Positions 884 through 34,993 of a DNA stretch of 64,000 nt are shown here, one piece after another. The stretch's first letter is position 1, and each line of letters begins with the position of its first letter. Position numbers and translations under genes: made by a program. The stretch spans positions 88,430-152,429 of IMG/VR virus record IMGVR_UViG_3300035670_011224. One strand, written 5' to 3'. The stretch comes from a virus. The notes under the pieces are model-generated. The model was not told where the DNA came from, did not search any database, and saw only the letters and a program-made list of their open reading frames with translations.

Positions 884-3800
884 TTATGTTGTAATTATTC
901 TTTCTGTCCAAGAAATTCCACTATCAGTACTGGTATAAATATGTCCGACATATACAGTGGAAACTAGTTTGGTTCCATCGGCACTACTAGTAATACGATA
1001 CCAGTTTCGATTATTTTCTCTCGCTATCCAAGACACCCCACTATCAATACTTGTATAAATTTGTCCATTTTCTACAACAGCAGCAAGTTTAGTTCCATCA
1101 CTACTACTGGTTATATCTATCCATTGTCTTTGTCCTGATGCAAATCGTGCAATCCAAGTTGCGCCACTATCGGAACTAGTATAAATATATCCATTATATA
1201 CAGTTGCTGCTAATTTAGTTCCATCACTGCTGCTGGTTATAGCAGTCCAAGCATGAACCATATTAGAAATAGATCTGACTGTCCAATTTACTCCGCTATC
1301 AGAACTAGTGTAAATATCTCCATTATTAATTGATACTGCTAATTTTACACCATCACTACTACTAGTAACTCTAATTAAACCAGCAGAAATTGTGGTTATT
1401 CTGTTCGTCCAATTAGCTCCACTATCAATACTAGTCGAGACTCCACCGCTATTACTTGCAACTAGCTTAACCCCATTAGAATTACTAGCTATATCAATCC
1501 AAAATATATAATTATTATTTTTTAGTGTCCAATTGATTCCACTATCGGAACTAGTATAAACATCACCATTACCTATAATTGCTACAAGATTATTTCCATC
1601 GTCACTACTAGCAATAGCTTTCCATTGTCGATTACTTTGTGTTGCTAGTCTTGCTATCCAGTTGGTCCCACTGTCACTACTTGTATAAATTTGTCCATTC
1701 CAAGCAACAGCAGCAAGTTTAGTTCCATCACTACTACTGGTAATATCGCTCCATGGTTTGCTATAGTTTGTTGGAGTAACTGTTGGCGTGACTGTTGGTG
1801 TAGTGTTTGGTGTTGTCGCGGGAGTAGATGTTAGCGTAATAGTTGGCGTTGGAGTAGTTGTTTGGGTTACTGTATTTGTGGGAGTAACTGTTGGTGTTAC
1901 TGTTGGAGTAAGAGTATTAGTCTGGGTGGTTGTTGGTGTAACTGTGTTAGATGGAGTAACTGTTGGAGACACTGTTGGTGTTGCCGTATTGGTAGGAGTA
2001 ACTGTCGGTGTTACTGTGTTCGATGTAGTAACAGCTGGTGTTGCTGTAACTGTTGGCGTTGTCGTATTGGATGGAGTAACTGTTGGGGTTACAGTATTAC
2101 TCGGAGTAACTGTTGGGGTTGCAGTATTACTCGGAGTAACTGTTGGGGTTGCAGTATTACTCGGAGTAACTGTTGGGGTCGCAGTATTACTCGGAGTAAC
2201 TGTTGGAGTAACTGTGTTGGATGGAGACACCGTCGGCGTTACTGTTGGAGTAACTGTGTTAGATGGAGACACCGTTGGCGTTGCTGTTGGAGTAATACTA
2301 CTTGTAGGAGTAACTGTCGAAGTGGCTGTTGGTGTGGTGGTTGGTGTTGTTGTTGGAGTAGATGTTGGCGTAATAGTTGGTGTTGGAGTAGGCTTGGGAG
2401 TATTTAGTATAATTTTAATAGATTGATTTTTAATATCACAATAATTATTTTTAATATGAGGATTATAAGAATTTATAGTTGGTTGAATATATGATTGATT
2501 ATTACTAATAATTTTAATATGATTGCTACAAGAGATGTTATTGGATTGTACAACGTGAGGATTAATATGATTAATAGTTGGTGGAGTATACAGCATATTA
2601 TTTCCAATAATTTTTATAGAAGAGTTATTTGAACATTGTTTTTGATATGTTATTGGTTCAACATAAGGATTGTCGCATCCGTAGCATCTAGACTCTTTTG
2701 TTGATGCTTTGATAGTGCTTCCATTGGAACTAGCACAATTACCATAAATTATTATTTGATATTTATCAGTATAAAAATTAGTTATTTCAATAGGATCGAA
2801 TGTGATATTTGTAGAATTAATAACGCAATTATTTTTTTCAACATATTCTTCTACACATATATAATAACAGCATTCTCCAACACAAGACGATGGAAGCGGC
2901 GTAGATGCTGGTGTTGGCGTTGGCGTGAGTGTGGGAGTTGCTGATGGTGGTGGTCGCGGACTTGGGGACGAAGATGGTAATGGCGGAGACGGTGGACTCG
3001 GAGGACTAGGTGGCGATGGTGGACTTGGTGGACTTGGTGGACTTGGAGGCGATGGAGGACTTGGTGGGCTTGGAGGTGATGGAGGACTTGGTGGCGATGG
3101 TGGACTCGGTGGACTTGGAGGTGATGGTGGACTTGGTGGACTTGGTGGCGACGGAGGACTTGGCGGCGATGGTGGACTTGGTGGCGAAGGCGGCGATGGT
3201 GGACTTGGTGGCGAAGGCGGCGATGGTGGACTTGGTGGCGAAGGCGGCGACGGTGGACTTGGAGGCGATGGTGGACTTGGTGGACTTGGTGGACTTGGTG
3301 GACTTGGCGGCGAAGGCGGACTTGGTGGACTTGGTGGCGACGGAGGACTTGGCGGCGAAGGCGGACTTGGTGGACTTGGTGGCGAAGGCGGCGATGGTGG
3401 ACTTGGCGGCGATGGTGGACTTGGCGGTGAAGGAGGACTTGGTGGCGAAGGCGGCGATGGTGGACTCGGTGGACTCGGAGGACTAGGTGGCGACGGAGGA
3501 CCGGGTGGCGGTGGCGGTGGTGGCGGCGAACAACCCTCGCTACTACAAGAAGGACACTGAGGACAAGCAGATGCTCCGCCGCCTTCTTCTATACATTGAC
3601 CACACGTTGGACTAGAAGGATTGGTATCGCAAAATAGAAATTTAGTACAGCACGGATCTTGTTCTGGACAAGGATCCTCTGGTGTGCAGACTTTAACTAG
3701 GTTGTTCGGGCTGTTTGGGCAACAACGACTCTCAGGATTTACTCCATCAGTTTCTTGATTAAAAATTATATTACAATCGTTTTCATCTTTACCCATATAA

Positions 3801-4033
3801 CAACTACCTTGTACTAATCCTGTAAAAACTCCATTCTGATCTGCACAAGCTTCAAAACTTGTAGTATAGAACGGAGCACCTTGACAAGTTCTAAGACCAT
3901 TATTACAATCAACAATTTGCTCAACTGGACATTGTTGATCGCATGGTATCTGTGAAACTATTTTACAAGTGCCACATATACCTCCTTCATATTCTAAACT
4001 ATTAATAGTATCTTGTAATTGTAATTTTTTCAT
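884..4033 (-). CDS. Large modular fibre/adhesin-like protein: Cys-rich N-terminus, (Pro-Pro-Ser)n rod, Thr-Pro linker, C-terminal BNR/Asp-box beta-propeller
   Basis: 1049 aa. The C-terminal ~290 aa has about 7 blades of [13 protein letters not shown]....GxIYTSxDSGxxW (Asp-box SxDxGxTW). Long PPS and TPTVTPSN tracts. No signal peptide. Confidence 0.85.
1770..2400 (-). repeat. Thr/Pro-rich coding tandem repeat (30-nt unit, [10 protein letters not shown])
   Basis: Near-identical 30-nt units gcagtattactcggagtaactgttggggtt at about 2090-2200, with degenerate copies either side. Confidence 0.85.
2984..3527 (-). repeat. (Pro-Pro-Ser)n coding repeat, roughly 55-60 units; GC-rich island
   Basis: 9-nt units (ggtggactt / ggcggcgat / ggtggcgaa) with synonymous variation; encodes PPSPPSPPS... 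Confidence 0.95.
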
Positions 4034-4087
4034 TTTATTTTTTAAAAATAAGAATTCTTTTTAATTAACTGTGATAATATACAGTGA

Positions 4088-5548
4088 TTATGCTCCAGGA
4101 ACATCAATACATATTCCATTTCTACAAATTTGTCGATCAGTACAGCAATTACGTCCACAACAAGGATTATGATCTGGACCGGCGATAGGACACGCCATAA
4201 AATCACAACATACGTATTCACTTTTCTTTAGACATTGTAAATTAGCAATATTAGTAATATCTCCACAACAAACTTCATTGTCTTCACAACAATTTGCGCT
4301 TCCACAACAAAATTTATTATCAGGACATATATGAGCCAACGGCGTACCAGCAAAACAACATTTGCTTCCTCTTTGCTGATAGCAACCACCACCCGGACAA
4401 CAAGTTTCACCAGGATTGCAGCTTTCGATGTCCGATCCTCCTTTATCGGGACAATTTTTACATACTCTTCTACATTTTCCATCTCCGCATACTTTTTCGC
4501 CTTGTTCGCAGCATCTAGGCTGTCCACTCCCATCTTTTCCGGCTCTACGCTCTGAACAACACTGGCCGGCATGCCATTTGTGTCCTTTAGCACAACATAC
4601 TTCTGTATTGCGCTCGGGAGCAGGAAAACACCTTTCTCCTGCTTTTGTGTTGCAGTAAGAACCTGTATCGCAATTACATCGTATAAATCCTGGATATTCG
4701 CAAAATACATTATTACACACTGGATCCCATTGGGCAGTGCCTTTTTTTCCAGATTGTGGAGGGCATGTAAAACAAGTTGGACCCTGAGGTGTGTTCTTGC
4801 AGTCTTCCCTGACACAGCATTTTCCACCACAAGAAATCTCTCTATTACTACAACACTGTTTTGTTCCATCATTTTTCTGTATAATTTTATCAGTCCTACA
4901 ACATGTTCCATTAGATAAACATGAATGTGTAGCCATATTACACGGTTTTTTATTACAGCATACAAATCCGTCCTTGAGCAATATTCCATTACAACATTGC
5001 TCTTCATCTACACAATTATCTTCGCAACATATTTGCCCACTATCAGTATCACAGCCACATCGTTGCTCTCCACACGGTCCTGCGCAATTTGCATCAGCTT
5101 GAGTTGAGAATTCTTCATTATTTACTATAAATCTATCACATTTAGTTTTTATAATTTTACCATCACAACATTCTTCGTCCAGAGCTAAAATCTTTCCGCC
5201 ACAACAGGCTGTTGATAATACGCATTGTCCATTACAACAAGTTTTTATACTATTAGTAGTATCACAACATGAGTCTCCGCAAGTTGTTAATGGAGGTTTT
5301 TGATCTTCACAAGTATGATATTCTGTTGTGCTCCACGATGTATAATGCACACATTCTCCATACTTAATATCTCCATCATTGCAACTATCTCCTAAATTAT
5401 CATTTGTGGAACAATAACAATTATCATCACAATCTTGCTCTAAAAACCACATAGGTTTGGAAAAAATTTCATTTTGAACTTCTATACTAATATGTTCTAA
5501 TGAAGGAATTCCACATCTCCACCAGCAAGAAGAATTACAATTATTCAT
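4088..5548 (-). CDS. Cysteine-rich repeat protein with CC doublets (galaxin/Stig1-like spacing)
   Basis: 486 aa; repeated CC..G..CC / CCNG / CCGG / CCDG units; no signal peptide; co-oriented with its neighbours. Confidence 0.75.
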   Translation of the reverse strand: MNNCNSSCWWRCGIPSLEHISIEVQNEIFSKPMWFLEQDCDDNCYCSTNDNLGDSCNDGDIKYGECVHYTSWSTTEYHTCEDQKPPLTTCGDSCCDTTNSIKTCCNGQCVLSTACCGGKILALDEECCDGKIIKTKCDRFIVNNEEFSTQADANCAGPCGEQRCGCDTDSGQICCEDNCVDEEQCCNGILLKDGFVCCNKKPCNMATHSCLSNGTCCRTDKIIQKNDGTKQCCSNREISCGGKCCVREDCKNTPQGPTCFTCPPQSGKKGTAQWDPVCNNVFCEYPGFIRCNCDTGSYCNTKAGERCFPAPERNTEVCCAKGHKWHAGQCCSERRAGKDGSGQPRCCEQGEKVCGDGKCRRVCKNCPDKGGSDIESCNPGETCCPGGGCYQQRGSKCCFAGTPLAHICPDNKFCCGSANCCEDNEVCCGDITNIANLQCLKKSEYVCCDFMACPIAGPDHNPCCGRNCCTDRQICRNGICIDVPGA

Positions 5549-5578: not shown

Positions 5579-8374
5579 TTAGCACCATTTAATACATTCG
5601 GTATAAGTATCACTATCTTCGTCAATATCACATTTCATACACCTATCTCCAAAACTACAGCCAACACAAGATCCATCAACGCATTTTCTACATAATTTTT
5701 GACTACATTGATTAATACAAACAGCAGAACCTGGAAAAATTGATGAGCTACATATCTCACATTTTGTAGTGTCGCACTTTAGTACACACTCTCCATTTTG
5801 ACACTCTTCGCATTTTTTAGGATCGCACTTAGTGACACATTGTCCATTTATACATACTTCACATTTATTTTTATCACATTTGTTAACACATCCACCTTTA
5901 TTATCACACTCTTCGCATTTTTTACTATCGCAATTGATTATACAATTACCTCTAGAGTCGCATGTTTCGCATTTAGCAGCGTCGCATTTTGCAACACATT
6001 TATTATTTTCGCACTTTTCACATAATATGCTACAATTAGGTACACAATTTCCACGTTCGCATCTTTCGCATTCGTTACATTTTGATTCGCATTTTCCTTT
6101 TCCATCACATATTTCACAATTATTGCGATTACAAACAACAACACAACCGATTGGGCCACATACTTCACATTTGTCTGGATTACATATATATATACAGTTT
6201 TTATTTATACAACTTACGCAAGGATTGTTTTTACATTGCGAAACACAATTTCCACCAATACATTCTTCACATAAAAATTCGTTACATGATGATTTACATA
6301 CTCCTTGATCGCAATATTCACATTCTTTACAAGTAGACACACAATTTCCTTTGCCATCACATTGTAAACATTGTTTTGAGTCACATCCACCATCTACACA
6401 TTGATTATTAACACAAATTTGACAGTCATTACATATGTTGGTACATTTTCCACTAAGATCACAATCCGAACAATCTCCACACTTAGGAACACACTCTCCT
6501 TTTGCATTATCGCATTTTAAACACGGAGATGCTTCCGAACATGATTTATATCCCTTATCGGTACAAACCGTACATGGTGGACCTGATTCTACACAACTTC
6601 TACTACCATTTATCATTACACATTTTCTACCGGAACATTGTGGAGTAGAACATGGATCAACACACTTTCCATTTACACAATCTAAACAAGGATCATCACA
6701 AAAACATTTTTCGTCTTTACATTTGCAAGATCCACATTCACAACAAGGGTCTTTTACACATTTTCCATCTTCACAAATTTCGCATAATAATTCATTGCAT
6801 GACGATTTACAATGTCCATTTTTACATATTTCGCAATTATCTGGTTTACAAAATATTTTACAATCACCGAATTCTTTATCGCACTCTTCACATTGTTCGG
6901 CTCTGCAAGTATATACGCATCTTCCTTGACCATCACACTCTAAACATTTTTTTGGATCACATGATGATACACACTGTCCATTTTCACATATTTCGCAATT
7001 TAGATAATCACAACTATCTTTACAAAAAGATCCAGTACATCTCAAACAATTATTACTATCGCAACTATCTACACATTTTCCATTTTCACAGTCGTAGCAG
7101 CCGTTACATTTGGGTGTACACCATCCACCAGAACAAATTTCACATTCATTGCATTGATTTTTACATACTCCGTTGTCACAAATTTCGCATTTACTTTTGT
7201 CACATTTAGAATAACATCTTCCAGATAAACATTCTAAGCAGCTTTTGGGATCGCAAGGATCTACGCATTTAGAATTACCGTCACAAACTAAACATGAATT
7301 TTTACCACCACAAGCACTTACACATTGGTCATTTTCGCACACCATACAATTTTTACCGTCACAACCATCCACGCACTGATCGTCGATACATCTTTGACAA
7401 CCACTACACGAATTGTAACATGTGCCATCGCAACGCAAACAATTACCACTACATTTTGGAACACATTCACCTGTTTGATAATTACATACTAAACACGAAG
7501 ACGCTTGAGAACATGGTAGATAACCCTGTTGTGTACAAGCTCTACAAAATCCTCCATTATCAACACACGAAGGTTCTCCATCTACTAAAACACATTTTCT
7601 ACCAGGACACTCTGGTGTAGTACATCGATCAACACACTCTCCGTCTTTACAAACTTCACAAGCACTATCACAAACACATGTTTCGTTTTCGCATTTACAA
7701 GATCCACATTCGCAGCAAGGATCTTTTACACATTCACCGTCTTCGCAAATTTCACATTCTTTACAAATTGATTCACAAACATCTCCTGCGCAACGTTGAC
7801 AATTTTCTTTCTTACAAGGATTAATGCATTTACCATTTTCACAAACATTACATCCTTTACAGATTATACCACAACATTTATCTCTATTTCCACAACAAGG
7901 ATCATTTGATCCGCAACATGGATCGGTGTTATTGCAGCATGGTCCACGACAATTTTTATATCCGCCGGGAGACGGCGGGCTTGGTGGACTTGGTGGACTA
8001 GGAGGAGACGGCGGGCTCGGAGGAGGCGGTGAAGGAGGAGGAGGTGGTGGTGGTGGTGGTGGTGGTGGTGGTGGTGGTGGTGGTGGTGGTGGTGGAGGTG
8101 GCGGGGGAGGAGGTGGAGGAGATGGCGGTGGCGGGGGTGGAGGCGAAGGAGGTGGCGACGATGAACATATTCCTCCATAAACCTGGCCATTTGTTGGGTT
8201 GGCTACTGGAGGAGGTGGACAAAAAGGTTCACATCCATCGGGACAAGGTATAGATATCATCCATGTACAAGATTGAGATCCATCATCATTGGCCACACAA
8301 ACAGCAGTGTATTGACAGTCACATCCTGGTGTGCTGGCTAGTGGTTCTATATTAAAAATATTTTTTATTTTCAT
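5579..8374 (-). CDS. Very Cys-rich repeat protein with a poly-Pro/PPS linker and >30 CxxCxxGxC-type repeats
   Basis: 931 aa; ~20-aa unit C(D)PxxCExCxNGxCVxx; poly-Pro tract near the N-terminus; ~100-aa internal duplication. Confidence 0.85.
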   Translation of the reverse strand: MKIKNIFNIEPLASTPGCDCQYTAVCVANDDGSQSCTWMISIPCPDGCEPFCPPPPVANPTNGQVYGGICSSSPPPSPPPPPPPSPPPPPPPPPPPPPPPPPPPPPPPPPPPPPSPPPPSPPSPPSPPSPPSPPSPGGYKNCRGPCCNNTDPCCGSNDPCCGNRDKCCGIICKGCNVCENGKCINPCKKENCQRCAGDVCESICKECEICEDGECVKDPCCECGSCKCENETCVCDSACEVCKDGECVDRCTTPECPGRKCVLVDGEPSCVDNGGFCRACTQQGYLPCSQASSCLVCNYQTGECVPKCSGNCLRCDGTCYNSCSGCQRCIDDQCVDGCDGKNCMVCENDQCVSACGGKNSCLVCDGNSKCVDPCDPKSCLECLSGRCYSKCDKSKCEICDNGVCKNQCNECEICSGGWCTPKCNGCYDCENGKCVDSCDSNNCLRCTGSFCKDSCDYLNCEICENGQCVSSCDPKKCLECDGQGRCVYTCRAEQCEECDKEFGDCKIFCKPDNCEICKNGHCKSSCNELLCEICEDGKCVKDPCCECGSCKCKDEKCFCDDPCLDCVNGKCVDPCSTPQCSGRKCVMINGSRSCVESGPPCTVCTDKGYKSCSEASPCLKCDNAKGECVPKCGDCSDCDLSGKCTNICNDCQICVNNQCVDGGCDSKQCLQCDGKGNCVSTCKECEYCDQGVCKSSCNEFLCEECIGGNCVSQCKNNPCVSCINKNCIYICNPDKCEVCGPIGCVVVCNRNNCEICDGKGKCESKCNECERCERGNCVPNCSILCEKCENNKCVAKCDAAKCETCDSRGNCIINCDSKKCEECDNKGGCVNKCDKNKCEVCINGQCVTKCDPKKCEECQNGECVLKCDTTKCEICSSSIFPGSAVCINQCSQKLCRKCVDGSCVGCSFGDRCMKCDIDEDSDTYTECIKWC
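8043..8093. repeat. Pure (GGT)17 trinucleotide run encoding poly-proline
   Basis: Uninterrupted ggt repeats on the + strand within the 931-aa gene. Confidence 0.9.
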
Positions 8375-19508: not shown

Positions 19509-19857
19509 TAAAACTAGATTCGCTCAGAATATTAATATCTTTTTTTATAGCAGCTCTTTTATCGTTTGTTATATAAACAGACCTAGCCAACTCTATAAAT
19601 TCTTTATCAAATATTTTTTGTTTTTCTTTTAGTCTTATATGATCTTCAATATTCCATAGTTCTTTATTTATAGTTTTTAAAGTGAAATAAAGCTGTTTAA
19701 TTTGAATATTATCTAATAGATGTAAGCATTGTTGTTTTATGTATTCTAGTTCTTTAGTAATATTAGATAATTTATCTGTTTCTTTAATGCAGTCGCTCTT
19801 GATCTCTAGTATTGTTAATTTATCTAAAATTTCGCCATTTGATATTTGTATATTCAT
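19480..19857 (-). CDS. DUF6165 family protein
   Basis: ISNGEILDKLTILEIK, LWNIEDHIR, FIELARSVYITNDKRAAIK, EEKSY; start likely ATG 19857 (ATGA overlap). Confidence 0.8.
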   Translation of the reverse strand: MNIQISNGEILDKLTILEIKSDCIKETDKLSNITKELEYIKQQCLHLLDNIQIKQLYFTLKTINKELWNIEDHIRLKEKQKIFDKEFIELARSVYITNDKRAAIKKDINILSESSFIEEKSYEPY

Positions 19858-20498
19858 ATTATGATCCAATTTTTTTTCAAAATAAAATTGCTATGATTTT
19901 TAGATATAAAATTTTTATGATATACTAATTTGGTTTTTTTAGATGTTTCTATTCTATCTATTAGATGTATATAAGAAGAATTAATACAATGTATTTCTGT
20001 TGCATTCTGTATAAGATCTATATTATCAAAAAAATTACCATTATTACTATAAATTTTTTGTAAAGTATGATCTATTTTTGTATAATCAAGCCTATCTATG
20101 CCATCCGAGCCCATATGACATAGAAAACCATAAGGTTCATTTGGTACAGGATTTTGCGATTTCGGTTTGTTTATGAAAAAATTATTCCAAGATAATTCGT
20201 ATGAAAGACCAATTTGATAATAAAATACTTCGTCCCACATCAAATTTGAAGGAAAATTGGAATTTAATGATATTCCTAATCTAATATAGTTTGAATTTTG
20301 TAATCCAATATCGGTGGCCTCATTATCATTCTCTACACACAATATTTGTATATTAGAATTATTTTTATACATATAAGATACGTTTTGATAATTCTTATGT
20401 TTACAAAATAGTTTTATATTTTCTTTTGCTGCAATGGTTCTTATTAGTCCGTTGCATATAATATGATCTCCTAATCCTAGATGGTGATGAATTATCAT
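19854..20498 (-). CDS. GT9/GT-B-like glycosyltransferase
   Basis: HHLGLGDHII; IQNATEIHCINSSYIHL resembles the GT9 DSGxxH region. Confidence 0.6.
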   Translation of the reverse strand: MIIHHHLGLGDHIICNGLIRTIAAKENIKLFCKHKNYQNVSYMYKNNSNIQILCVENDNEATDIGLQNSNYIRLGISLNSNFPSNLMWDEVFYYQIGLSYELSWNNFFINKPKSQNPVPNEPYGFLCHMGSDGIDRLDYTKIDHTLQKIYSNNGNFFDNIDLIQNATEIHCINSSYIHLIDRIETSKKTKLVYHKNFISKNHSNFILKKNWIII

Positions 20499-21277
20499 AT
20501 TTTATTTTTGATATTTTCTAGAATATTCTTTGCTTCATTTGGGTCTTTGCATCCATGAAAACAATAAAATTTAACAGGGCAATTCAACTTTAAATACGAT
20601 TCGTAGAGTTCAAAGCTGTTGTCTATATTATTAGATATATAATCTTTATATATAGTGCTGTTTGGAAAAAAATTATATCCTAGATCATAATTAACTTGGT
20701 ATTTAGCCAATAAGCAGTTGAGTATTCCTTCGTCTTCTATGTATGGGATAGAATTATTCTTATGGAATAGATCAATAGAATCTATGATTTCTTGTATGAA
20801 AGATTTATGATTTTTTATCACTAACCCACAAGCATATACATACTTCATGCTGGGCTGATTGGATGTAAACATATCAAGCATGTTTTTTAAATGATATTTA
20901 TGTATAGGATTTTCAAAAGGATTGTGTGGATGTTTTGCAAATAGTGGGAACTGACATGAAGCTATACGATTAACATTTTCATAGAATAATTTGTCTACTT
21001 CTGGTAGAGCAATCATATCTGCGTCTAACATTACTGTTAAGTCATAAGTACTATCTAATAGTGTTAACCATTTGTATTTATAAAGATGGCTGTTTGTTAT
21101 GATTCCAGTTTCTCTAATTTTTTTAGAAATAACTTGAGTGTTTTTAAAATCATAATCAAAATTTATACAGTTAACAGTTATCGGATATTCGCTAAACGAG
21201 CAGATAGAGTCTATTAGAATCTCAACTAGCGGCAGCCAATTCCTGGTGCAAAAAGTGTTGAACCCAAAATTGTTCAT
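20495..21277 (-). CDS. GT8-like (GT-A) glycosyltransferase
   Basis: YKYKW, MLDADMI (DxD), EDEGILN, FHG. Confidence 0.7.
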   Translation of the reverse strand: MNNFGFNTFCTRNWLPLVEILIDSICSFSEYPITVNCINFDYDFKNTQVISKKIRETGIITNSHLYKYKWLTLLDSTYDLTVMLDADMIALPEVDKLFYENVNRIASCQFPLFAKHPHNPFENPIHKYHLKNMLDMFTSNQPSMKYVYACGLVIKNHKSFIQEIIDSIDLFHKNNSIPYIEDEGILNCLLAKYQVNYDLGYNFFPNSTIYKDYISNNIDNSFELYESYLKLNCPVKFYCFHGCKDPNEAKNILENIKNKI

Positions 21278-21924
21278 GATGTTATGTATTTCTGGTATTC
21301 TGGATGTCTATTATTGAACTCATCAAATACGTCTCCAACAAATTCTGTATTTTGTCTTGCTGTTGGAAATGGTTGTTTATCAAAAAATTCATCATGTACT
21401 AATTTATCATCACCTATTAAAGGATACAATTCTTCTGTAAAAAATTTATAATCAGTACCATAGTTATTTGTTTTATTGAAAGATTCTAATAATATTTGCA
21501 TAGGATATTTATTGTTATTTTTATATCCCCACATACCTCCAAGAATAGGAAATTTGTGATATGGATGATCTCTCATAATATGAAAGGTTTTATTAGACTG
21601 TAACCATTCATCTACTGCATATTTTTCTCTTAGCGACAATCTACTATCGGTATCTCTAAAAATACTTACATTCACATCAATATCATACGATGCTTCGAAT
21701 CTCCAAAACATACTTCTCCAATCACCTTTGATGTTTTTTTTAATAATTTGTGTATTGGAAAAAGATTCTAGTTTTTGTATTGTTTCAATTGGAACTTCCG
21801 AATCTATATAAAATCTACACACCCAATCAGAGTATATATCTTTAGCAAGTTCTGCATTTTTTATACTACCAAAAGTATATTTTGGATTATTGCCCCAAAG
21901 ACTAAAGCTAATAATTTTATTCAT
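21274..21924 (-). CDS. Putative GT-A glycosyltransferase of the viral 'SFSLWG' type
   Basis: IISFSLWGNNPKY, MFWRF, RDTDSR, MRDHPYH, ILGGMWG. Confidence 0.65.
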   Translation of the reverse strand: MNKIISFSLWGNNPKYTFGSIKNAELAKDIYSDWVCRFYIDSEVPIETIQKLESFSNTQIIKKNIKGDWRSMFWRFEASYDIDVNVSIFRDTDSRLSLREKYAVDEWLQSNKTFHIMRDHPYHKFPILGGMWGYKNNNKYPMQILLESFNKTNNYGTDYKFFTEELYPLIGDDKLVHDEFFDKQPFPTARQNTEFVGDVFDEFNNRHPEYQKYITS

Positions 21925-22913: not shown

Positions 22914-22945
22914 AGTATTGTTTGTTTGACCGCTTGAACAGATGT

Positions 22946-22973
22946 ATAATACACCCAATCTCTGGTTTGTCAA
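22946..22973 (-). promoter_or_regulatory. Leftward promoter TTGACA-16-TATTAT containing the GGTGTAT motif
   Basis: TTGACAAACCAGAGATTGGGTGTATTAT. Confidence 0.55.
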
Positions 22974-22996
22974 CACTAAAATTAGCATTTCGTGTC

Positions 22997-23024
22997 TTGA
23001 CAAAGATTCACATAGTACTATTAT
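22997..23024 (+). promoter_or_regulatory. Rightward sigma-70-like promoter for the + strand glycosylation cassette
   Basis: TTGACA-aagattcacatagtac(16)-TATTAT, back to back with the leftward promoter. Confidence 0.5.
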
Positions 23025-23065
23025 TGGTGCAGCTGGGTGGTATTATATTTCTTAGGTCTACAATA

Positions 23066-24721
23066 GTGATAAATTCTACTATAGTAACTGGTATATGGGA
23101 TCTTAGTAGAGATTCTTTGTCTGAAGGATGGGGTAGAAATTATCAGCATTATATTGATAATTTTTCTAAATTATTATCTTCTTTACCAGATGACACACCT
23201 TTGATGGTTTTTGGAGATCAAGAATTAGAAGATCTTGTCTTTAGGCATAGAAATAAAGAAAATACAAGATTCTATATACATAAAAAAGTTGATTTTGATG
23301 GAAATTTCTTTCCTTTTTTTAAACAAGTACAGCAAATAAGACAAAGCGATAATTGGTTAAATCAAGTTGGATGGTTAAGAGATAGTACTCAAGCAAAACT
23401 AGATTACTATAACCCTATGGTAATGAGCAAAATGTTTCTTTTGCATAATGCCAAGATATTTAATCCATTTAGTACAGAGTATATATTTTGGTTGGATGGT
23501 GGAATAACTAATACTGTTCATCCTGGATATTTTAGCCATGATAAAGTTCTAAATAAATTAGAGCATATTGTTAAAAAATTTCTATTCATATGTTTTCCAT
23601 ATGAAACCACAACAGAAATTCATGGGTTCGATATCGATCAAATGAATCAAATTTGTGATGCTAGTGTTAACAGGGTAGCTAGGGGCGGATTTTTTGGTGG
23701 TCATATAGACTATATTTCTCAAGCTAGCAGTCTATACTATAGTTTATTGAGTCAAACTTTGAATAATAATCTTATGGGAACTGAAGAGAGTATATTTACA
23801 ATAATGACCTATAAAGATCCAGACACTTATACTTATGAACCTATTGAGTCAAATGGATTAATAAATACATTTTTTGAAAAACTTAAAAATAGCCAAACAT
23901 TAATAGAAACTAAAGTTCAAAGTACCAGAAAACCTTTTAAAAATAATGATACGGTTTTATATATTAATGCTTTTAATTCTCCAGACCAATTACAAATGGT
24001 ATTAGATAGTTTTGAAAAATATGATAATAATTTTATTAAACAAACTAGTAAAATATTATTAAATAATTCGACTAAAGAAGAATTATTACCTATATATGAT
24101 ATAATATGCGATAAATATAATTTTAAAGAACATCTAAAATATGGAAATAAAGGAGTTTGTGGATCTCGACAGTTTGCAGCGGAACATTTTTCCGATTCTG
24201 GATCCAGATATATGATATTTTTTGAAGATGATATGCTTTTAGATTTTAATGGATTTTGTAATTTTGGTTTTAATAAAAATATTCATAATTTATTTAATCG
24301 CATTGTTAAAATAATGAAAAATGAAGAATATGATTTTCTTAAATTTACTTTTAGTGAATTCTATGGCCATAATGGAGAACAATGGAGTTGGCATAATGTT
24401 CCTGGAGAAAAAAGATTAAAATATTTTGGTCGTACTCAAAAAAAACCAAACACAAAATTCTCTTGCATAAAATCTATAGATGGTCTTCCTTATGCCGAGG
24501 GAGAGGTTTACTACAGTAATTGGCCTCATATTATAGATCAAGAAGGTAATCAAAAGTGTTTTCTTGATACAAAATGGGATCATCCTTTCGAGCAAACATG
24601 GATGAGTCACATATACACTTTAACAATCGAGAATAAAGTAAAACCAGCAATTCTATTAGCTAGTCCAATAACACATAATAGAGTCCATTTTTATGAATCA
24701 AATGAAAGAAGAGAAAATTGA
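23066..24721 (+). CDS. HtrL/YibB(WlaTC)-like domain fused to a GT-A glycosyltransferase domain
   Basis: TIVTGIWDL, SKMFLL..A..NPF, FWLDGG, GGFFGG, GTEESI; second domain GVCGSRQ...FFEDD. Start probably GTG 23066, since the longer ORF crosses the promoters. Confidence 0.75.
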   Translation: MINSTIVTGIWDLSRDSLSEGWGRNYQHYIDNFSKLLSSLPDDTPLMVFGDQELEDLVFRHRNKENTRFYIHKKVDFDGNFFPFFKQVQQIRQSDNWLNQVGWLRDSTQAKLDYYNPMVMSKMFLLHNAKIFNPFSTEYIFWLDGGITNTVHPGYFSHDKVLNKLEHIVKKFLFICFPYETTTEIHGFDIDQMNQICDASVNRVARGGFFGGHIDYISQASSLYYSLLSQTLNNNLMGTEESIFTIMTYKDPDTYTYEPIESNGLINTFFEKLKNSQTLIETKVQSTRKPFKNNDTVLYINAFNSPDQLQMVLDSFEKYDNNFIKQTSKILLNNSTKEELLPIYDIICDKYNFKEHLKYGNKGVCGSRQFAAEHFSDSGSRYMIFFEDDMLLDFNGFCNFGFNKNIHNLFNRIVKIMKNEEYDFLKFTFSEFYGHNGEQWSWHNVPGEKRLKYFGRTQKKPNTKFSCIKSIDGLPYAEGEVYYSNWPHIIDQEGNQKCFLDTKWDHPFEQTWMSHIYTLTIENKVKPAILLASPITHNRVHFYESNERREN

Positions 24722-25368
24722 TAAATAACGAAGAACTAATTAATATATTTACAAAAAATAAGTCTGTTACTTATTTTAATAAAAAATCTTCTGATAATGA
24801 TCTTTTTCCATATTTAAATTATTGTTTAGATCATTCTTTAAAATCAAAAGACTATTTATTTATGGAATTAGGAGTGTTCACAGGAAATACATTTAGTTGT
24901 ATAAGATCCTCACTACCAGAAGATATTAATCTATATGGTTTTGATACATTTACTGGACTACCAGAGGACTGGATGATAAATGAAAAAGATGTTCTATATG
25001 CAAAAGGTACATTTGCTCTAGACTATATTCCGCATAGCACCCATAATACAGAATTTATAGTTGGAAATATAGAAAATACAATGACTCCATTTCTTCAAAA
25101 ACATGACAAAAAAATTTCTTTTGTACATTTTGATATGGATCTATATAATCCAACATTTTTTGCTTTAAAAGAAATGCATAATTATTTTTTAAATGGTACT
25201 GTTTTAGTATTTGATGATTTTTACAATTTACCTGGATGGGAAAATTATTCATTTAAAGCACTTTTAGACTATGTTAATTTTTATAATGTTGAATTCGAAC
25301 CATTATCAACAGTAGGCTGGTACGACGGATGGGCTTCTGCTGCTATTAAAATAATAAATAGGATATAA
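24718..25368 (+). CDS. TylF/MycF-like sugar O-methyltransferase
   Basis: MELGVFTG, YGFDTFTGLPEDW, VHFDMDLY, LVFDDF. Confidence 0.85.
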   Translation: MINNEELINIFTKNKSVTYFNKKSSDNDLFPYLNYCLDHSLKSKDYLFMELGVFTGNTFSCIRSSLPEDINLYGFDTFTGLPEDWMINEKDVLYAKGTFALDYIPHSTHNTEFIVGNIENTMTPFLQKHDKKISFVHFDMDLYNPTFFALKEMHNYFLNGTVLVFDDFYNLPGWENYSFKALLDYVNFYNVEFEPLSTVGWYDGWASAAIKIINRI

Positions 25369-25369
25369 T

Positions 25370-26644
25370 ATGAAAAAGACAAAATTAAAAAACAATACTA
25401 TATTTATACAAATAGCCTCTTATAGGGATCCTCAATTATTACCGACCCTTAAAGATATGCTAGAAAAAGCTAAGTATGCAGAAAATCTAAGAATAGGAAT
25501 ATGTTGGCAACACTCTTCTCAAGATGAATGGGATAAACTAGATGATTATAAAAATGATTCTAGATTTAGAATTATCGATGTTCCACACACGGATAGTCAA
25601 GGTGTATGTTGGGCAAGAAATAAGGTTCAATCCCTGTACCAAAACGAAAAATATACTTTACAACTCGATAGTCACCATAGATTTGTACAAAATTGGGATT
25701 CTGAACTAATAGATATGCTAAAAAATCTTCAGAAAAAAGGACATAAAAAACCACTAATAACTTCTTATATTCCCAGTTTCGATCCTGACAATGATCCAGC
25801 AGCAAGAGTAAACGAACCTTGGAAAATGAATTTTGACAGATTTATACCAGAGGGAGCAGTATTCTTTCTTCCTGCTTCATTTGATAGTTCAGAAGATAAA
25901 ACTAGTCCATTACCAGGTAGATTTTATAGTGCTCATTTTGCTTTTACAGTAGGAGATTTTTGTAAAGAAGTTCCTCATGATCCCAATTACTATTTTCATG
26001 GAGAAGAAATCAGTATCGCTGTTAGAGCATTTACGCACGGATACGATATTTTTCATCCTCATAAAGTACTTGTTTGGCACGAATATACAAGAAAAGGCAG
26101 AACCAAACAGTGGGACGATGATAAAATTTGGGGAGACAGAAATAGCAAGAGTCATCTAAGAAATAGAAAACTTTTTGAAATGGATGGAGAAAAAAGAGAT
26201 ATTGATTTTGGTCCTTATGGTTTTGGAAATGTAAGATCATTAAAAGATTATGAGTTGTATTCTGGTCTATGTTTTTCAAGAAGAGCAATTACAAAAAGAG
26301 TACAAGAACATAAACCACCACCAGATCCTGAAACAACTGATTTGGACTATGACTCTTTTCAATCTCATTTAATGAGTATATTTAAACATTGTATAGATAT
26401 TCAATATGGACAAGTACCCGAGAACGATTATGATTTTTGGGCAGTCGCTTTTAAGAACGACAAGGGAGAAGACCTTTATAGAAAAGATGCAGATAAAGAA
26501 GAAATAGATAGAGTAAAAAACGATCCTGATGGATACTGTAAAATATGGAGAGAATTTCAAACTAATATTAAGCCTGTTAGCTGGATAGTTTGGCCGCATA
26601 GCATTAGTAAGGGCTGGGCTGATCCTATAATAGGATATCTATGA
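25370..26644 (+). CDS. GT60-family GlcNAc-transferase (Gnt1/Gnt2-like; hydroxyproline or Ser/Thr acceptor)
   Basis: IFIQIASYRDPQL, GVCWAR, LQLDSHHRF..WD, VPHDP..YFHGEEI...RAFTHGYDIFHP. Confidence 0.85.
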   Translation: MKKTKLKNNTIFIQIASYRDPQLLPTLKDMLEKAKYAENLRIGICWQHSSQDEWDKLDDYKNDSRFRIIDVPHTDSQGVCWARNKVQSLYQNEKYTLQLDSHHRFVQNWDSELIDMLKNLQKKGHKKPLITSYIPSFDPDNDPAARVNEPWKMNFDRFIPEGAVFFLPASFDSSEDKTSPLPGRFYSAHFAFTVGDFCKEVPHDPNYYFHGEEISIAVRAFTHGYDIFHPHKVLVWHEYTRKGRTKQWDDDKIWGDRNSKSHLRNRKLFEMDGEKRDIDFGPYGFGNVRSLKDYELYSGLCFSRRAITKRVQEHKPPPDPETTDLDYDSFQSHLMSIFKHCIDIQYGQVPENDYDFWAVAFKNDKGEDLYRKDADKEEIDRVKNDPDGYCKIWREFQTNIKPVSWIVWPHSISKGWADPIIGYL

Positions 26645-27486
26645 TTAATTTAATATGGCAAACAAAAGATGGCGATGAAACACAATTTGAATACCAGTAT
26701 ATTACAGAATATATATTTAAAGATATACAATATAATAAATATTTTGATAATAAATCTTATTCTACTGTATTAGATAATTCTGTTATTATATATTCTAATA
26801 ATACAAATATAATAGAAAAAAATTTTAATGATTATCTATCAAGATTTGATTCATTAAAATTCAGATATTATCTTTTACATCTCTCCAACGAAAATTTAAA
26901 CCATGAAGCAGAGTATTACTCCAAAGCTCATAGAGTTTATCGTCAATATTATGACTCTACTCTTAATAAAGACAACGTAGTTTTTATACCACTAGGATTT
27001 AAATCGGGTTATTTAAATAAAAATATTAATAATAGTTTTGTTAAACTTTATGATTTTATTTTTGTTGGACAAATTAAATCTGACAGAGAAGAACTTTGTA
27101 ATATACTAAAAAATTATAAATCTTTTATTCATAATACGTATTCATGGAATTGTATATCTTCATTATCACCAGATAATTGTTCAAAAGTTTACTCTGAAAC
27201 AAAATTTGCTCCTTGTCCAATGGGATGGGTAAATCCTGACTCTTTCAGAATTATGGAATCTTTAGAACATAATTGTATTCCAATACTTAAATCTTATTAC
27301 AATAATTTTGATTATCATACAAAAGTTTGGGGAGATACTCCTATTCCACGAGTAGAATCATGGCAAGAACTAGAAAAATTTAATAAACTTTCTGATATAG
27401 AATATCAAAAGTTACATAAGTCTGTTTTTGATTGGTACACAGAGTACAAAAGTAACTTTAGCAAACTAATAAAATCAACATTATGA
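26641..27486 (+). CDS. Exostosin/GT47-like glycosyltransferase
   Basis: IPLGF, FIFVG, KFAPCPMGWVNPDSFRIMESLEHNCIP. Confidence 0.7.
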   Translation: MINLIWQTKDGDETQFEYQYITEYIFKDIQYNKYFDNKSYSTVLDNSVIIYSNNTNIIEKNFNDYLSRFDSLKFRYYLLHLSNENLNHEAEYYSKAHRVYRQYYDSTLNKDNVVFIPLGFKSGYLNKNINNSFVKLYDFIFVGQIKSDREELCNILKNYKSFIHNTYSWNCISSLSPDNCSKVYSETKFAPCPMGWVNPDSFRIMESLEHNCIPILKSYYNNFDYHTKVWGDTPIPRVESWQELEKFNKLSDIEYQKLHKSVFDWYTEYKSNFSKLIKSTL

Positions 27487-28241
27487 ATAAAAATTATAGT
27501 TTTGATATAGGAATTACCACATTTAGTTTAAGACTAGATATGCTTAAAAATCTAATAAAAGATATAAGATCTTTTACTGATAATAATATTCTTTTATGCG
27601 TTAATGGAGAAAAATATGGTAATTTCGACGATATGTATAGAAATTCAATATTAGATTTATCAAAAACATATAAAAATATTTTTCCTATTTTTTTTATAGA
27701 CCTAAGAGGTTTAGCAAAAATGTGGAATACAATCATAGTTCACGCTCTAAAAGACAATATTTTATTATTAAATGATGATATAATTATACAAAGCAGCAAT
27801 ATATTCGAAGTCGTAGAACAACATATCTCTGATAAAGAGTATAATGGACTTAGCATAATAAATGAAACTTTTTCATTTTTTGTAGTTAATAAATATTTTA
27901 TTCATGATCTAGGTTATTTCGATGAAAGACTTCTTGGTTTCGGAGAAGAAGATGGAGATATCAAGTATAGAATCAAACAAAAATATAATAAAAATATTGG
28001 TAAAATAAATTGTTCTGGTATAAATAATATTATTTCTGATATTAGGCATCCTGGTGTAAAAAACGGTATTGGTAAATATTCTTTATTTAATAGAACCTAT
28101 ATATTTAATGAAAAATATAATTGTAATGGAAATATTTATTATTTTCCAGATAATATAGAGTGTGAGAAAAAAATAGAAGATTATAACTGTTATCCATATG
28201 AAAATTTTTATCTAACAAACAAACATAAATTATTTGAATGA
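27483..28241 (+). CDS. GT2-family glycosyltransferase
   Basis: GLAKMWN, LLNDDI, GYFDERLLGFGEEDGD. Confidence 0.85.
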   Translation: MNKNYSFDIGITTFSLRLDMLKNLIKDIRSFTDNNILLCVNGEKYGNFDDMYRNSILDLSKTYKNIFPIFFIDLRGLAKMWNTIIVHALKDNILLLNDDIIIQSSNIFEVVEQHISDKEYNGLSIINETFSFFVVNKYFIHDLGYFDERLLGFGEEDGDIKYRIKQKYNKNIGKINCSGINNIISDIRHPGVKNGIGKYSLFNRTYIFNEKYNCNGNIYYFPDNIECEKKIEDYNCYPYENFYLTNKHKLFE

Positions 28242-28974
28242 TAATATGTCTAAAAAAATATCTTTAAATATGAAATTTTGGCATGATGGTCAACCTAATT
28301 CTACTAGACTAAGGAATGTTATATATTGTTGGAATGAACTAAAAAAATTATCAAGATTTTTATTAGAAAATAATATAGATATTAAAACAAATATTTATGA
28401 TTTTTCAGAACATAAAATTCTAGAAGAAGCTATTCATATTTCATATCCTGTTGGAGAATATAAAAAATCTGAAAAAACTAATATTATTCTAAAAGATGAG
28501 TCTGCTTCTGATTTTTTTATGATGTTTGATAGTGATGCTTTTTTTGACGTAAAGGACTATCAAAAATTATTAAATCTAATAGAATCATTAGAGCCTGGAG
28601 ATGTTATTACTTTTGATTTAGGTAGATTGGATACTAATATAGAAAATTATTTAGTAAATAATATTTTTTATCCTGATAAAGCTGATTGGAATTTTGCTTA
28701 TTCTGGTGAAAAAATTCATGGACCTTTAGGAAGAGGCCACATAGGAGGTCTTGGTGGAGTATATTTATGTGACACTAAGCTTTTGCTAAGTCTTGGTGGA
28801 TTTGATGAAAAATATATAGGATGGGGAGGAGAAGATGGCGATATGTTAGGAAGAATTATGTATAGTAATATTCCTCATAAAATAAAACCAGAAAGAAATT
28901 TTTTTCCTTTTCATTTGCCTCATTTTATTGATTATGGTAATCCTAAATTTAGTAAAAGATTTGCTGATGAATAA
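28234..28974 (+). CDS. GT2/GT7 (galactosyltransferase-like) glycosyltransferase
   Basis: FDSD; GGFDEKYIGWGGEDGD; FHLPH. Confidence 0.8.
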   Translation: MNDNMSKKISLNMKFWHDGQPNSTRLRNVIYCWNELKKLSRFLLENNIDIKTNIYDFSEHKILEEAIHISYPVGEYKKSEKTNIILKDESASDFFMMFDSDAFFDVKDYQKLLNLIESLEPGDVITFDLGRLDTNIENYLVNNIFYPDKADWNFAYSGEKIHGPLGRGHIGGLGGVYLCDTKLLLSLGGFDEKYIGWGGEDGDMLGRIMYSNIPHKIKPERNFFPFHLPHFIDYGNPKFSKRFADE

Positions 28975-29875
28975 AAAAGTACAAATAGAATGCTGGTGGG
29001 CATCTTCAAAAGATATAACACAAAGAACACTCGATCAGTTCTCTTTTAATAACAATACTTCTGATATAGATTTTGTTACAGATAATAACTATGATTGGCT
29101 TGTTGTATGTGGAAAATTACCTCAAAATTTTAATTCTACAAATATAAATAAATCTAGAACTATCTTTTTTGTTATGGAACCAAGTTGGTCACCAAATACA
29201 GATAAGGATGCGGCCAACTATAGCAAATATATTTGTACACATAATAAAAATATTTTTAACGATAAAAGTGCTATATTTTTTGAAGAACCTAATTATATGT
29301 TTTATGGAGGAAGAGGAGATAGCGGATGGAATATTGATACAATCACTAAATCAATATTTAATAAAACCAAAAATATTAGTTGTATTGTGACAAAAAGAGG
29401 TAATAGTTGGGGAACAAAAAATATTTACGATGAAAGGGTTGCTTTAGCTGATCTACTAAGTATAGATGATCATATAGATATCTATGGTACTTTTTGGCCA
29501 AACAATGGTAAAAATATCCACGGAGAAATATGGAATAAATTTGTAGCTTTAAACGATTATATGTTTTCTATTGGTATAGAAAATACATCAGAAAATAATT
29601 ATATTACAGAAAAATTTTATGATTGCATATTAACAGACACAATACCAATATATTTTGGGGCTCCAAATATTTCTGACTACTTCGATATGAATGGTATGGT
29701 ATATTTAGATAACATATTCGATACTAATAGATGTGCAACTAAAATCAATAATATTTATGAAAATATTTATAATGAATATAATTCTAAAATAGAATCATGT
29801 AAAAAAAATAAACTTACTTTTTTAACAAATCATAATATCATAAATAAAATTAAAGAAATAATTTATAATGAGTAA
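28967..29875 (+). CDS. GT10 alpha-1,3/4-fucosyltransferase-like protein
   Basis: MEP; YMFSIGIENTSENNYITEKFYDCILTDTIPIYFGAPN (GT10 motif). Start likely ATG 28967. Confidence 0.88.
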   Translation: MNKKVQIECWWASSKDITQRTLDQFSFNNNTSDIDFVTDNNYDWLVVCGKLPQNFNSTNINKSRTIFFVMEPSWSPNTDKDAANYSKYICTHNKNIFNDKSAIFFEEPNYMFYGGRGDSGWNIDTITKSIFNKTKNISCIVTKRGNSWGTKNIYDERVALADLLSIDDHIDIYGTFWPNNGKNIHGEIWNKFVALNDYMFSIGIENTSENNYITEKFYDCILTDTIPIYFGAPNISDYFDMNGMVYLDNIFDTNRCATKINNIYENIYNEYNSKIESCKKNKLTFLTNHNIINKIKEIIYNE

Positions 29876-30761
29876 TTATATCGTTACGGCAATTTATGAT
29901 AATTTATTTGGAACAGATCTTGGTGGTCGTCCAGCAAGAGGAGATCACTATCGACATAGTTTGAAATCTATTGCAAAAATTAATAATGCAAAATTCAAAA
30001 TTTTTACAGATGATGTTGATGGTATCAAAAATTTTATAGATACTAATATTACTAATATCACATATGATATATACAACTTTGATCTAAGAACCACAGAGTT
30101 TTCTGATAAAATTAACAAGATTAAAAATATAGAAGAAACTAAAAAATCTGTTAGATGTATAGAATTACAATATTCTAAATTATTATGGTTAGAATTAATT
30201 GCTAAAAATATAGATGATAATGATTATATTTTTTGGTTTGATGCTGGCTTATCTTATAGTGGTTTAATACCAGAAAAATATTTAGGAAAAAATACAGAAG
30301 GATATCATAGTTTTTATTATTATTCTAATTTATTTAATAATACTTTATTAGACAATATTATATCTTTCGCAGACGATAGCATCTTTTGTGTTGCTAAAGA
30401 CAATCTAAGATTTTTTTGGGACAATGGATTACCAGAAAAATGGTTTATTAATCATAAAAAAATAATAGATTATCATATAATAGGCGGTTTATTTGGAGGT
30501 AAATGTAAAAATGTTAAAATTTTATGTGAATATTTTCGTGATTTAGCTAATAAATTATTAGACAATGAAAATATATTATATAGTGAAGAAAATATATTAA
30601 CTACAATTTATTTTAATTATACTTATCTTTTTAAACCAAAATTTTTTGATATATGGTGGCATGAAAATAATATTTCTGGAGTAATGCCAAAAGAAGAAGG
30701 TTTGGAGCTTCTAAAAAGAGTTAGAAGTTTTTATAGAGTTTTAGAGGATTTTATAGAATAG
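29868..30761 (+). CDS. HtrL/YibB(WlaTC)-like putative glycosyltransferase
   Basis: IVTAIYD, YSKLLWL, FWFDAG, IGGLFGG, SEENIL. Confidence 0.7.
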   Translation: MSNYIVTAIYDNLFGTDLGGRPARGDHYRHSLKSIAKINNAKFKIFTDDVDGIKNFIDTNITNITYDIYNFDLRTTEFSDKINKIKNIEETKKSVRCIELQYSKLLWLELIAKNIDDNDYIFWFDAGLSYSGLIPEKYLGKNTEGYHSFYYYSNLFNNTLLDNIISFADDSIFCVAKDNLRFFWDNGLPEKWFINHKKIIDYHIIGGLFGGKCKNVKILCEYFRDLANKLLDNENILYSEENILTTIYFNYTYLFKPKFFDIWWHENNISGVMPKEEGLELLKRVRSFYRVLEDFIE

Positions 30762-31683: not shown

Positions 31684-31684
31684 T

Positions 31685-32753: not shown

Positions 32754-32763
32754 CTTTATTGTG

Positions 32764-33820: not shown

Positions 33821-33833
33821 TTAAATTATATCA

Positions 33834-34145
33834 TTATTCTTTTAGTTTTTTTAACTTACTTATAGAATTACTAATATTAGTGTCAGAAACAATAGTATTT
33901 CCTAAGTTATCATATTTTTTCTCTAAACTATTAGTATCAATTTTGCTAACAATTTTTTTCTCATCTATCTCAATTTTTTGAATAATATTTTTTTGTATAT
34001 CTTTTTGAGCTATATCGCCAGTATTTTTTGTGTCATATACTATATTAATCTTAGATATTTTTCCGATAAAATATCCTAATATAAAAGTTAAGATATTTAA
34101 TGTTAAAAATATTATTGTAATAATATAACTAATATCTAAATTCAT
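33834..34145 (-). CDS. Single-pass membrane protein
   Basis: N-terminal hydrophobic helix YIITIIFLTLNILTFILGYFIG. Confidence 0.65.
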   Translation of the reverse strand: MNLDISYIITIIFLTLNILTFILGYFIGKISKINIVYDTKNTGDIAQKDIQKNIIQKIEIDEKKIVSKIDTNSLEKKYDNLGNTIVSDTNISNSISKLKKLKE

Positions 34146-34993
34146 AATAATTCTTTTAATGGTCTAGAAAAATAAAGACTATAATCTGGATCATTCTCTA
34201 TACTCCAATATTCATTTTCTTGTCTTTGTATCCATCTTTCTAGATATTTAGGATTTTTACGAAAATGTTTCCAATTTCTATTTATTATGTATGCTGGTGA
34301 CGAATGAAACCAACTAACTATTGCTGCTCTATCAAAATTTGCTCCTATAAAACCATGAAAACTATTATGACTAATCTCAAACATGAATAATCTATTATTT
34401 TTAGGTTCTATTGTTTTTATAAGCTTTCCACCATAACCATCGTATATCCCGGTTCCTCCACCATTAGTACCAATATCATCATTATTGTTTAAATAATATA
34501 GCAATGCTATGCTTCTTATCATTTTAATACTATTGGTATTAACTATCGAATCATCGGTATATACGACACCGCCAGTTGTAATAAAAGAATCGTCTGTTGG
34601 CTTATTAGAAAAAGAACATATATTCATATCTCTATGTATGAATCCGTTTTTAGATGGAGCCTTATGAAAATGAGCAGAAGGTGAGATGAATTTAGATGTT
34701 TTTATATCAAATGTTTTTTCAATAAAATCTTGTAGTTGTTGAGAAGCAAAAAAATCATAACCATTTTTTAAATCTTGTAGACCTAGTCCGGATATATAAC
34801 CCTCGTAATCGCTTGTTGCCCCAGGCTGATCCTTATAAGGCTTGGTTCTTGCTATAAACTCTGGAAATTTTTTGCATAAAGATTCGTATATTTGTTTATT
34901 AAATAAATTGTCTATTATAACATAATTAAATGGATCATTGAATTTAGATATAGAAACATATTTAGATTCATAATGGTGTATATTATATTGCAT
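34142..34993 (-). CDS. 2OG-Fe(II) oxygenase (prolyl-hydroxylase-like)
   Basis: IHRD (HxD), RSIALLYYLN, GGGT, IEPKNNRLFMF, SFHG (distal His), R of DRAAI. Confidence 0.85.
   Translation of the reverse strand: MQYNIHHYESKYVSISKFNDPFNYVIIDNLFNKQIYESLCKKFPEFIARTKPYKDQPGATSDYEGYISGLGLQDLKNGYDFFASQQLQDFIEKTFDIKTSKFISPSAHFHKAPSKNGFIHRDMNICSFSNKPTDDSFITTGGVVYTDDSIVNTNSIKMIRSIALLYYLNNNDDIGTNGGGTGIYDGYGGKLIKTIEPKNNRLFMFEISHNSFHGFIGANFDRAAIVSWFHSSPAYIINRNWKHFRKNPKYLERWIQRQENEYWSIENDPDYSLYFSRPLKELL
34975..34986 (+). promoter_or_regulatory. GGTGTAW motif on the + strand
   Basis: GGTGTATATTAT about 32 nt upstream of ATG 35013, followed by an AGGAGAGG SD. Confidence 0.55.

Follow-up and report, generated by a model that had tools for sequence, protein, structure and literature searches.

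Comparative and structural evidence points to two separately inherited tailoring modules in a phage genome, which may act on different stretches of the phage's own repeat proteins; we put the probability of this reading at roughly 0.45. The genes lie in a 64-kb stretch of DNA (here called the window) that forms the terminal part of a 152-kb, 32% GC virus record (IMGVR_UViG_3300035670_011224). The first module is built around a predicted polypeptide N-acetylhexosamine (HexNAc) transferase of family GT60 (25370..26644, plus strand), and its predicted role, O-HexNAc glycosylation of Thr, is probable when taken alone. The second is built around a 2-oxoglutarate (2OG)-Fe(II) oxygenase (34142..34993, minus strand), for which the chances of the predicted role, oxidation of proline, are evenly balanced. 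A preliminary description of this DNA had joined both enzymes in one serial hydroxyproline-rich glycoprotein (HRGP) pathway. The gene families, folds, motifs, and co-occurrence reported here are direct observations. The source, a lake phage, is large and tailed, as judged from an rIIA-like gene, and because relatives with terminal repeats span 138 to 244 kb, the record may be incomplete.

The 424-aa GT60 protein is recognized by the PF11397 profile with an E value of 5e-72 (243.7 bits against a curated cut-off of 21), which upholds the family assignment made in the preliminary description, and glycosyltransferase (GT)-like genes flank it. Its D-x-H metal motif (D100-S-H102) is invariant, and an extra beta domain occupies its C terminus (residues ∼334 to 424). 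The nearest match to its structural model (pLDDT 85) is ppGalNAc-T1 (8v9q; Z 20.4, rmsd 3.9, 286 residues aligned), followed by Toxoplasma GalNAc-T3 (Z 18.9) and then by a match at Z 15.6. Judged from the model, this resemblance is what any GT60 should show and does not discriminate between Thr and hydroxyproline (Hyp) acceptors. Close relatives number at least 113 in viral contigs and four in cultured phages, the latter being Xanthomonas and Stenotrophomonas jumbo phages with 46 to 48% identity. The constant partner of GT60 is an HtrL-like gene (HtrL/YibB family; 22922..24721, plus strand, with the real start probably at ∼23070), which is found in 63 of 80 GT60 loci, is elsewhere fused to GT60, and occurs in each of the 12 whole genomes that have GT60 but in none of the 4 that do not. 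A PF13578/TylF-like methyltransferase gene (24718..25368) shares its strand, as do variable downstream GT-like genes (26641..30761; RXYLT1/GT47-like, GT2-like, GT7-like, GT10-like, and a second HtrL-like gene), each present in just 2 to 9 of the 80 loci.

The Pro-rich repeats that an HRGP-type pathway calls for as substrates are present as described earlier: a rod of 57 perfect Pro-Pro-Ser (PPS) units, a poly-Pro/PPS tract, and Thr-Pro linkers. The rod (171 aa; 2987..3499, within a 183-aa P/S/G tract at 2981-3529) and a Thr-Pro linker (212 aa, of which 97 are Thr and 43 Pro; 1766..2401) belong to one 1049-aa stalk protein (open reading frame [ORF] 884-4033, minus strand), which combines a Cys-rich head, the rod, the linker, and a C-terminal BNR propeller. 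Also on the minus strand are a Thr-Pro repeat protein that is a candidate GT60 substrate (2..865; the N-terminal 288 of its 434 aa lie in the window and the rest beyond the window edge) and two Cys-rich proteins without family match, one of 486 aa and 17% Cys (4088..5548) and one of 931 aa (5579..8374) that carries the poly-Pro/PPS tract (66 aa at 7967-8164, 54 of them Pro) in a sequence that is otherwise 21% Cys. Four additional Thr-Pro proteins are encoded outside the window in the same genome, and one Thr-Pro protein lies inside a long co-oriented block of large genes (genome 168-41358). No match to the Pro-rich proteins was found in PHROG, and the terms fibre and virion, as the preliminary description applied them, go beyond what was observed. 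Tailoring in the cytoplasm, as envisaged in the preliminary description, is compatible with the finding that all proteins tested are soluble, none having a signal peptide or membrane segment. The possibility that the PPS rod is an assembly artefact was ruled out: four Pro/Ser codon choices each occur at high counts, TRF identity is merely 77 to 78%, and the same rod is present in relatives.

GT60 follows the Thr-Pro repeats and not PPS. The clade was sampled through a core ClpP-like gene, so that this unbiased set of 32 records was not chosen by trait. Among the records at least 80% complete, 7 have full-length GT60 and Thr-Pro repeats and 12 have neither; in 2 GT60 is truncated and repeats are absent, and 1 has repeats but is missing the relevant region. 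When the whole genomes are included, both traits are present in 16 and absent from 13 of 29 informative relatives, with G010, G017, G114, and G131 excluded as uninformative for want of the ruvB-volactin region. The zeros held up with a looser, 7-residue motif, which had no matches in eight genomes lacking GT60 and in one with a truncated GT60 but 45 in a genome that carries GT60. Mapped on the ClpP tree, GT60 and the repeats each undergo four changes, and the independent pairs are concordant in 3 of 3 cases. GT60 is found without a strict Thr-Pro motif match in G128 and G129, which are 67 to 68% complete. The truncated copies (G126:C1:107857-108261 and G127:C1:63090-63494) both sit in genomes without Thr-Pro repeats, as if GT60 were decaying there after loss of its substrate.

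The cultured phage XacN1 has a GT60-HtrL cassette, in which GT60 is ORF334, and, adjoining a structural gene, a protein with 48 Thr-Pro pairs. Virion bands of XacN1 are Schiff positive, band identity not having been determined in that study (PMC5852040). Because XacN1 has GT60, Thr-Pro proteins, and Schiff-positive virion bands, the GT60 arm is testable in a cultured phage now.

The preliminary description expected GT60, the oxygenase, and the repeats to co-occur across relatives; the enzymes do prove to be linked to repeats, but the two are inherited separately. In 38 of 43 records GT60 is present and this oxygenase is not. None of the 32 ClpP-sampled records, including all 11 with full-length GT60, carries the oxygenase, and GT60 therefore needs no such oxygenase. 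Conversely, the oxygenase is found without GT60 in G084 and G095 (terminal-repeat-complete), G088, and G097, and the two genes lie within 10 kb of each other in just 4 of 80 loci (tblastn with the window protein). The upstream prolyl hydroxylase expected of a Gnt1-type system is also lacking, in that most GT60 records have neither the oxygenase nor a PF13640 match, a host hydroxylase being possible. These distributions do not bear out a single serial pathway.

The oxygenase, a single 283-aa domain, has the double-stranded beta-helix fold, H-x-D...H triad, and basic 2OG ligand of a 2OG-Fe(II) oxygenase. The intact motif described earlier was confirmed by a PF13640 match (E 4e-7) and by the invariance of H119-x-D121, H212, and R221 in 69 homologues. 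Of its fold matches, OGFOD1, a prolyl 3-hydroxylase, ranks first (Z 18.1, rmsd 2.4, 191 residues aligned), and Tpa1 (Z 15.8), PPHD (15.6), and Dictyostelium PhyA (15.0) are among the others; algal and chlorovirus prolyl 4-hydroxylases (P4Hs) score lower (Z 13.6 and 13.4). HRGP/collagen-type P4Hs use Lys as the 2OG ligand, and the phage oxygenase has the invariant Arg221 instead. By sequence and model, it is best placed in the Arg-type OGFOD1/PHD group and not with the plant, algal, and chlorovirus P4Hs, to which the preliminary description had likened it. It shares with OGFOD1/Tpa1 and PHD/PhyA/PPHD the fold (Z 15 to 18), the metal triad, the Arg-type 2OG site, Tyr and Trp equivalents, and a prolyl-binding Arg: its R159, which is invariant, falls in the alignment at R162 of OGFOD1, the prolyl-carbonyl Arg (PHD2 R322) common to all prolyl 3-hydroxylases (P3Hs) and P4Hs (PMC4396695). 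Unlike members of that group, it has a ∼35-residue insert after H-x-D, a Gly at the Tyr310/Leu152 position in place of the OGFOD1-type Leu, and a short-chain dehydrogenase/reductase (SDR) partner, and it lacks the second, C-terminal domain of OGFOD1. A search of cultured phages with the oxygenase gave no match; XacN1 ORF345 was considered as a counterpart and dropped, as it lacks both an H-x-D motif and any match in Pfam.

Within the clade, a long proline tract is present in 7 of 8 oxygenase carriers and in none of the 24 non-carriers whose records cover the oxygenase slot (Fisher p 2e-6, uncorrected for kinship). Carriers came from enzyme searches and most non-carriers from the core gene, and neither group was picked by tract; several partial carrier records without a tract (19 to 65% complete) were treated as uninformative. 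The PF13640 search alone missed the oxygenase in G015/G016, and searching strictly for PPS overlooked the PPG, poly-Pro, and SP tracts. Proline is the sole element common to the tracts of carriers, which comprise PPS, PPG, poly-Pro with Val, and SP, some of them without a hydroxyl residue. Genomes with GT60 only have Thr-Pro alone, except for one 8-Pro run in G003. Since 30 to 130 kb separate oxygenase and tract in several genomes, linkage alone does not account for their association. One carrier (G085:C1:72848-78349) has collagen-like Gly-Pro-Pro runs interspersed with poly-Pro. At the contig ends of G002, G010, G015, G016, G099, and G102, breaks frequently fall inside proline tracts, so public assemblies under-count these repeats. 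A collection-wide PPS scan was discarded, most of its matches being the antisense of Gly-rich genes, and short poly-Pro matches in G109, G122, G123, G125, G138, and L601 were likewise discarded as antisense.

A second lineage is mixed, and its oxygenase carriers have SP or poly-Pro tracts. In this lineage the 172-kb phage G140 encodes an SP/GP repeat protein without this oxygenase and has, next to a GT60 fusion, a classical double-domain P4H (E 3e-28 to a Bacillus enzyme). The P4H gene directly precedes the 1032-aa fusion (L596:1-2676, equivalent to G140:C1 ∼38800-42800; also L584), which includes an O-FucT-like part and GT60, and its N-terminal domain has motifs that we tentatively equate with those of plant HPAT. 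The G140 locus is nearer a genuine HRGP pathway than the window is; the exchange of oxygenase for P4H, a single case, fits a proline substrate. BLAST with one HPAT-like phage domain, a weak test, found no HPAT-like gene in the genome under study.

The oxygenase has a companion outside the span covered by the preliminary description, a 209-aa NAD-epimerase-like SDR with a Gly-rich N terminus and a Tyr-x3-Lys motif (36254..36883, minus strand). An SDR lies within ∼4 kb of the oxygenase in 34 of 41 phage-type loci, is often fused to it, and is the sole family that tracks it over whole genomes (7 of 9 with oxygenase versus 0 of 6 without). Because the SDR adjoins, fuses with, and tracks the oxygenase, we regard the two as one unit, mobile between two or more phage lineages and among several loci. 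No prolyl hydroxylase is known to need an SDR partner, and this module is the least explained element of the system. A phmmer search of PDB with the SDR gave no match. Between the two genes in the window are a cupin gene (plus strand) and a capsule-synthesis PF05159 gene (minus strand; together 35013..36257), where relatives have other glycan-type genes. In L088, L095, and L084, genes neighbouring the oxygenase look like sulfotransferases, but Pfam gave no match for them. The oxygenase is also carried by short contigs in bacterial/archaeal metagenome-assembled genome bins (L597, L598, and L599), of which L597 and L598, at least, appear to be phage DNA placed in the wrong bin; the oxygenase of G010 may reside on the same-sample contig L088.

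We propose that both modules act in the host cytoplasm. GT60 would add alpha-HexNAc, probably GlcNAc, to Thr of the Thr-Pro repeats, and the HtrL-like partner and the changing downstream transferases would lengthen and cap the glycan. The oxygenase would oxidise proline in long poly-Pro/PPS/PPG/SP tracts, and the SDR would carry out an NAD(P)-dependent follow-up on the product, perhaps oxidising or inverting the new hydroxyl. The two arms would meet on proteins with both repeats, such as ORF 884-4033, yielding stiff decorated stalks, probably located on the particle, with Cys-rich or propeller heads. In this scheme we infer the acceptor residues, donors, SDR chemistry, and virion location. A broader and more tentative proposal is that the phage's own enzymes build an extensin/mucin-like coat, GT60 glycosylation of Thr being combined with a previously undescribed SDR-coupled prolyl oxygenase that in other phages is interchangeable with a classical P4H.

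Several observations weigh against the two-module reading. The tree-corrected tests, which use a single-gene tree, are underpowered and not significant: p is 0.25 for GT60 and Thr-Pro, where 3 pairs cannot reach significance, and 0.5 for oxygenase and tract (2 concordant pairs, none discordant, 1 tied). Thr-Pro runs occur without GT60 in G097 and G143 of another lineage (82% and 70% complete), and G141 of the second lineage (86% complete) has ∼19 consecutive Pro and no oxygenase match. The complete genome G084 has the oxygenase and SDR but merely three short Pro-rich repeats. At the PHD2 Tyr310 position, which is Tyr in P4Hs and Leu in P3Hs (PMC4396695), the oxygenase has an invariant Gly116, according to the sequence register from His119. 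PolD (Z 16.4) and PasI (Z 15.8), which both act on nucleoside sugar acids, match its fold nearly as well as OGFOD1 does. Finally, the wider oxygenase family is fused to SDRs (extended or classical, at either end) and to Stf0 sulfotransferases, fusions that read more like small-molecule or sugar chemistry. It is possible, if on balance doubtful, that the GT60 arm holds while the oxygenase and SDR leave proline unmodified and together tailor a sugar or small molecule for the glycan coat, oxidising and then reducing it much as KanJ and KanK do with kanamycin. Besides the PolD/PasI matches and the G084 exception, such tailoring would suit the closeness of the SDR, its fusion in both orders and in two unrelated types, the Stf0 fusions, and the cupin, capsule-synthesis, methyltransferase, and nucleotide-sugar genes that neighbour the oxygenase, whose invariant H107, H109, and K156 could bind an anionic substrate. 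It leaves unexplained, unless the host hydroxylates, why long proline tracts, some without Ser/Thr, are restricted to carriers in the clade, and the oxygenase retains the prolyl-binding Arg. PolD and PasI, second and third among the fold matches, are 13 to 18% identical to it, and nucleoside antibiotic genes are absent here.

The serial route of the preliminary description, with the oxygenase making Hyp on PPS rods and GT60 adding GlcNAc, in the manner of PhyA and Gnt1 acting on Skp1, now seems unlikely. It draws on the Hyp specificity of Gnt1, which belongs to the GT60 family together with a T. cruzi polypeptide GlcNAc transferase (PMC6939170), on the place of PhyA among the oxygenase fold matches, and on bacterial fusion proteins that join GT60 domains to PF13640 oxygenases. 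Proteins P0273, P0303, P0309, P0313, and P0330 (1000 to 2000 aa) combine several GT60 domains with GT2, AhpC-like, and PF13640 oxygenase domains; loci L469 and L471 of such proteins are bacterial chromosome, and a sulfotransferase-like gene adjoins one of them. In the clade, moreover, long proline tracts mostly occur in genomes that also have GT60, which could use both acceptors. Against this stand the separate occurrence of the two genes, their rare proximity, and the tracking of Thr-Pro by GT60. We also give little credence to the idea that the glycan genes modify phage DNA or the surface of the host, the repeats being plain linkers without modification. This agrees with the published view of jumbo-phage GT clusters (PMC7824862), several of the genes are like capsule or lipopolysaccharide enzymes, and the phage has many host-type genes, but the match of GT60 and Thr-Pro in 29 of 29 relatives is not predicted by it. 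Moreover, the nearest solved folds of GT60 are polypeptide transferases, and XacN1 virions stain for glycoprotein.

Among known systems, the phage GT60 is like Gnt1 of Dictyostelium and Toxoplasma and the T. cruzi alpha-GlcNAc transferase in its PF11397 domain, D-x-H motif, and ppGalNAc-T-like fold, and like Gnt1 it is soluble. Unlike these enzymes it tracks Thr-Pro rather than Skp1 or a hydroxylase, has the extra C-terminal beta domain, and keeps a fixed HtrL-like partner. PPS and SP repeats are the kind of substrate used by algal and plant HRGP P4Hs, and the present phage resembles PBCV-1, with its vCPH, in that the virus encodes both enzyme and repeat; those hydroxylases are Lys-type and Tyr-bearing, unlike the phage oxygenase, which matches them less. 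Phage-encoded transferases on phage proteins would be a feature shared with the virion glycosylation of mycobacteriophages and XacN1. Mycobacteriophage glycans are located at capsid and tail-tube C termini, according to the account of Freeman 2023 given in PMC12619734, whereas the candidate acceptors here are mucin-like repeats; the XacN1 study assigned neither enzyme nor acceptor (PMC5852040).

Virus-encoded protein glycosylation is already known (chloroviruses, mycobacteriophages, and the stained XacN1 bands). O-glycosylation of the mucin type and proline hydroxylation over whole repeats are regarded as eukaryote or giant-virus traits, and in a literature search of incomplete coverage no paper assigned GT60, mucin-like acceptors, or proline oxidation to phage proteins. 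The comparison made here parts the two phage enzymes and assigns each its own candidate substrate, and it brings to notice an oxygenase-SDR module. If the proposal is true, glyco-engineering and work on recombinant collagen or extensin would benefit from soluble phage enzymes able to initiate mucin-type glycans or to oxidise polyproline in the bacterial cytoplasm.

Further genes of the window, all on the minus strand, complete the picture. A variable block with GT2, methyltransferase-like, and further glycan-type genes (17189..21924) is read in the direction away from the GT60 cassette. Genes for subtilisin-like and signal-bearing trypsin-like proteases (30751-32443) adjoin the repeat-protein slot and are conserved in many relatives, and a Volactin-family actin-like protein (32764-33771; PF25216, E 2e-61) is a core gene of the clade. 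Three DUF1501-type genes and a cytochrome-c-type gene (36876-38150 and 50580-57988) are typical of planctomycetes and are carried by several clade members; the DUF1501-type genes suggest a planctomycete host.

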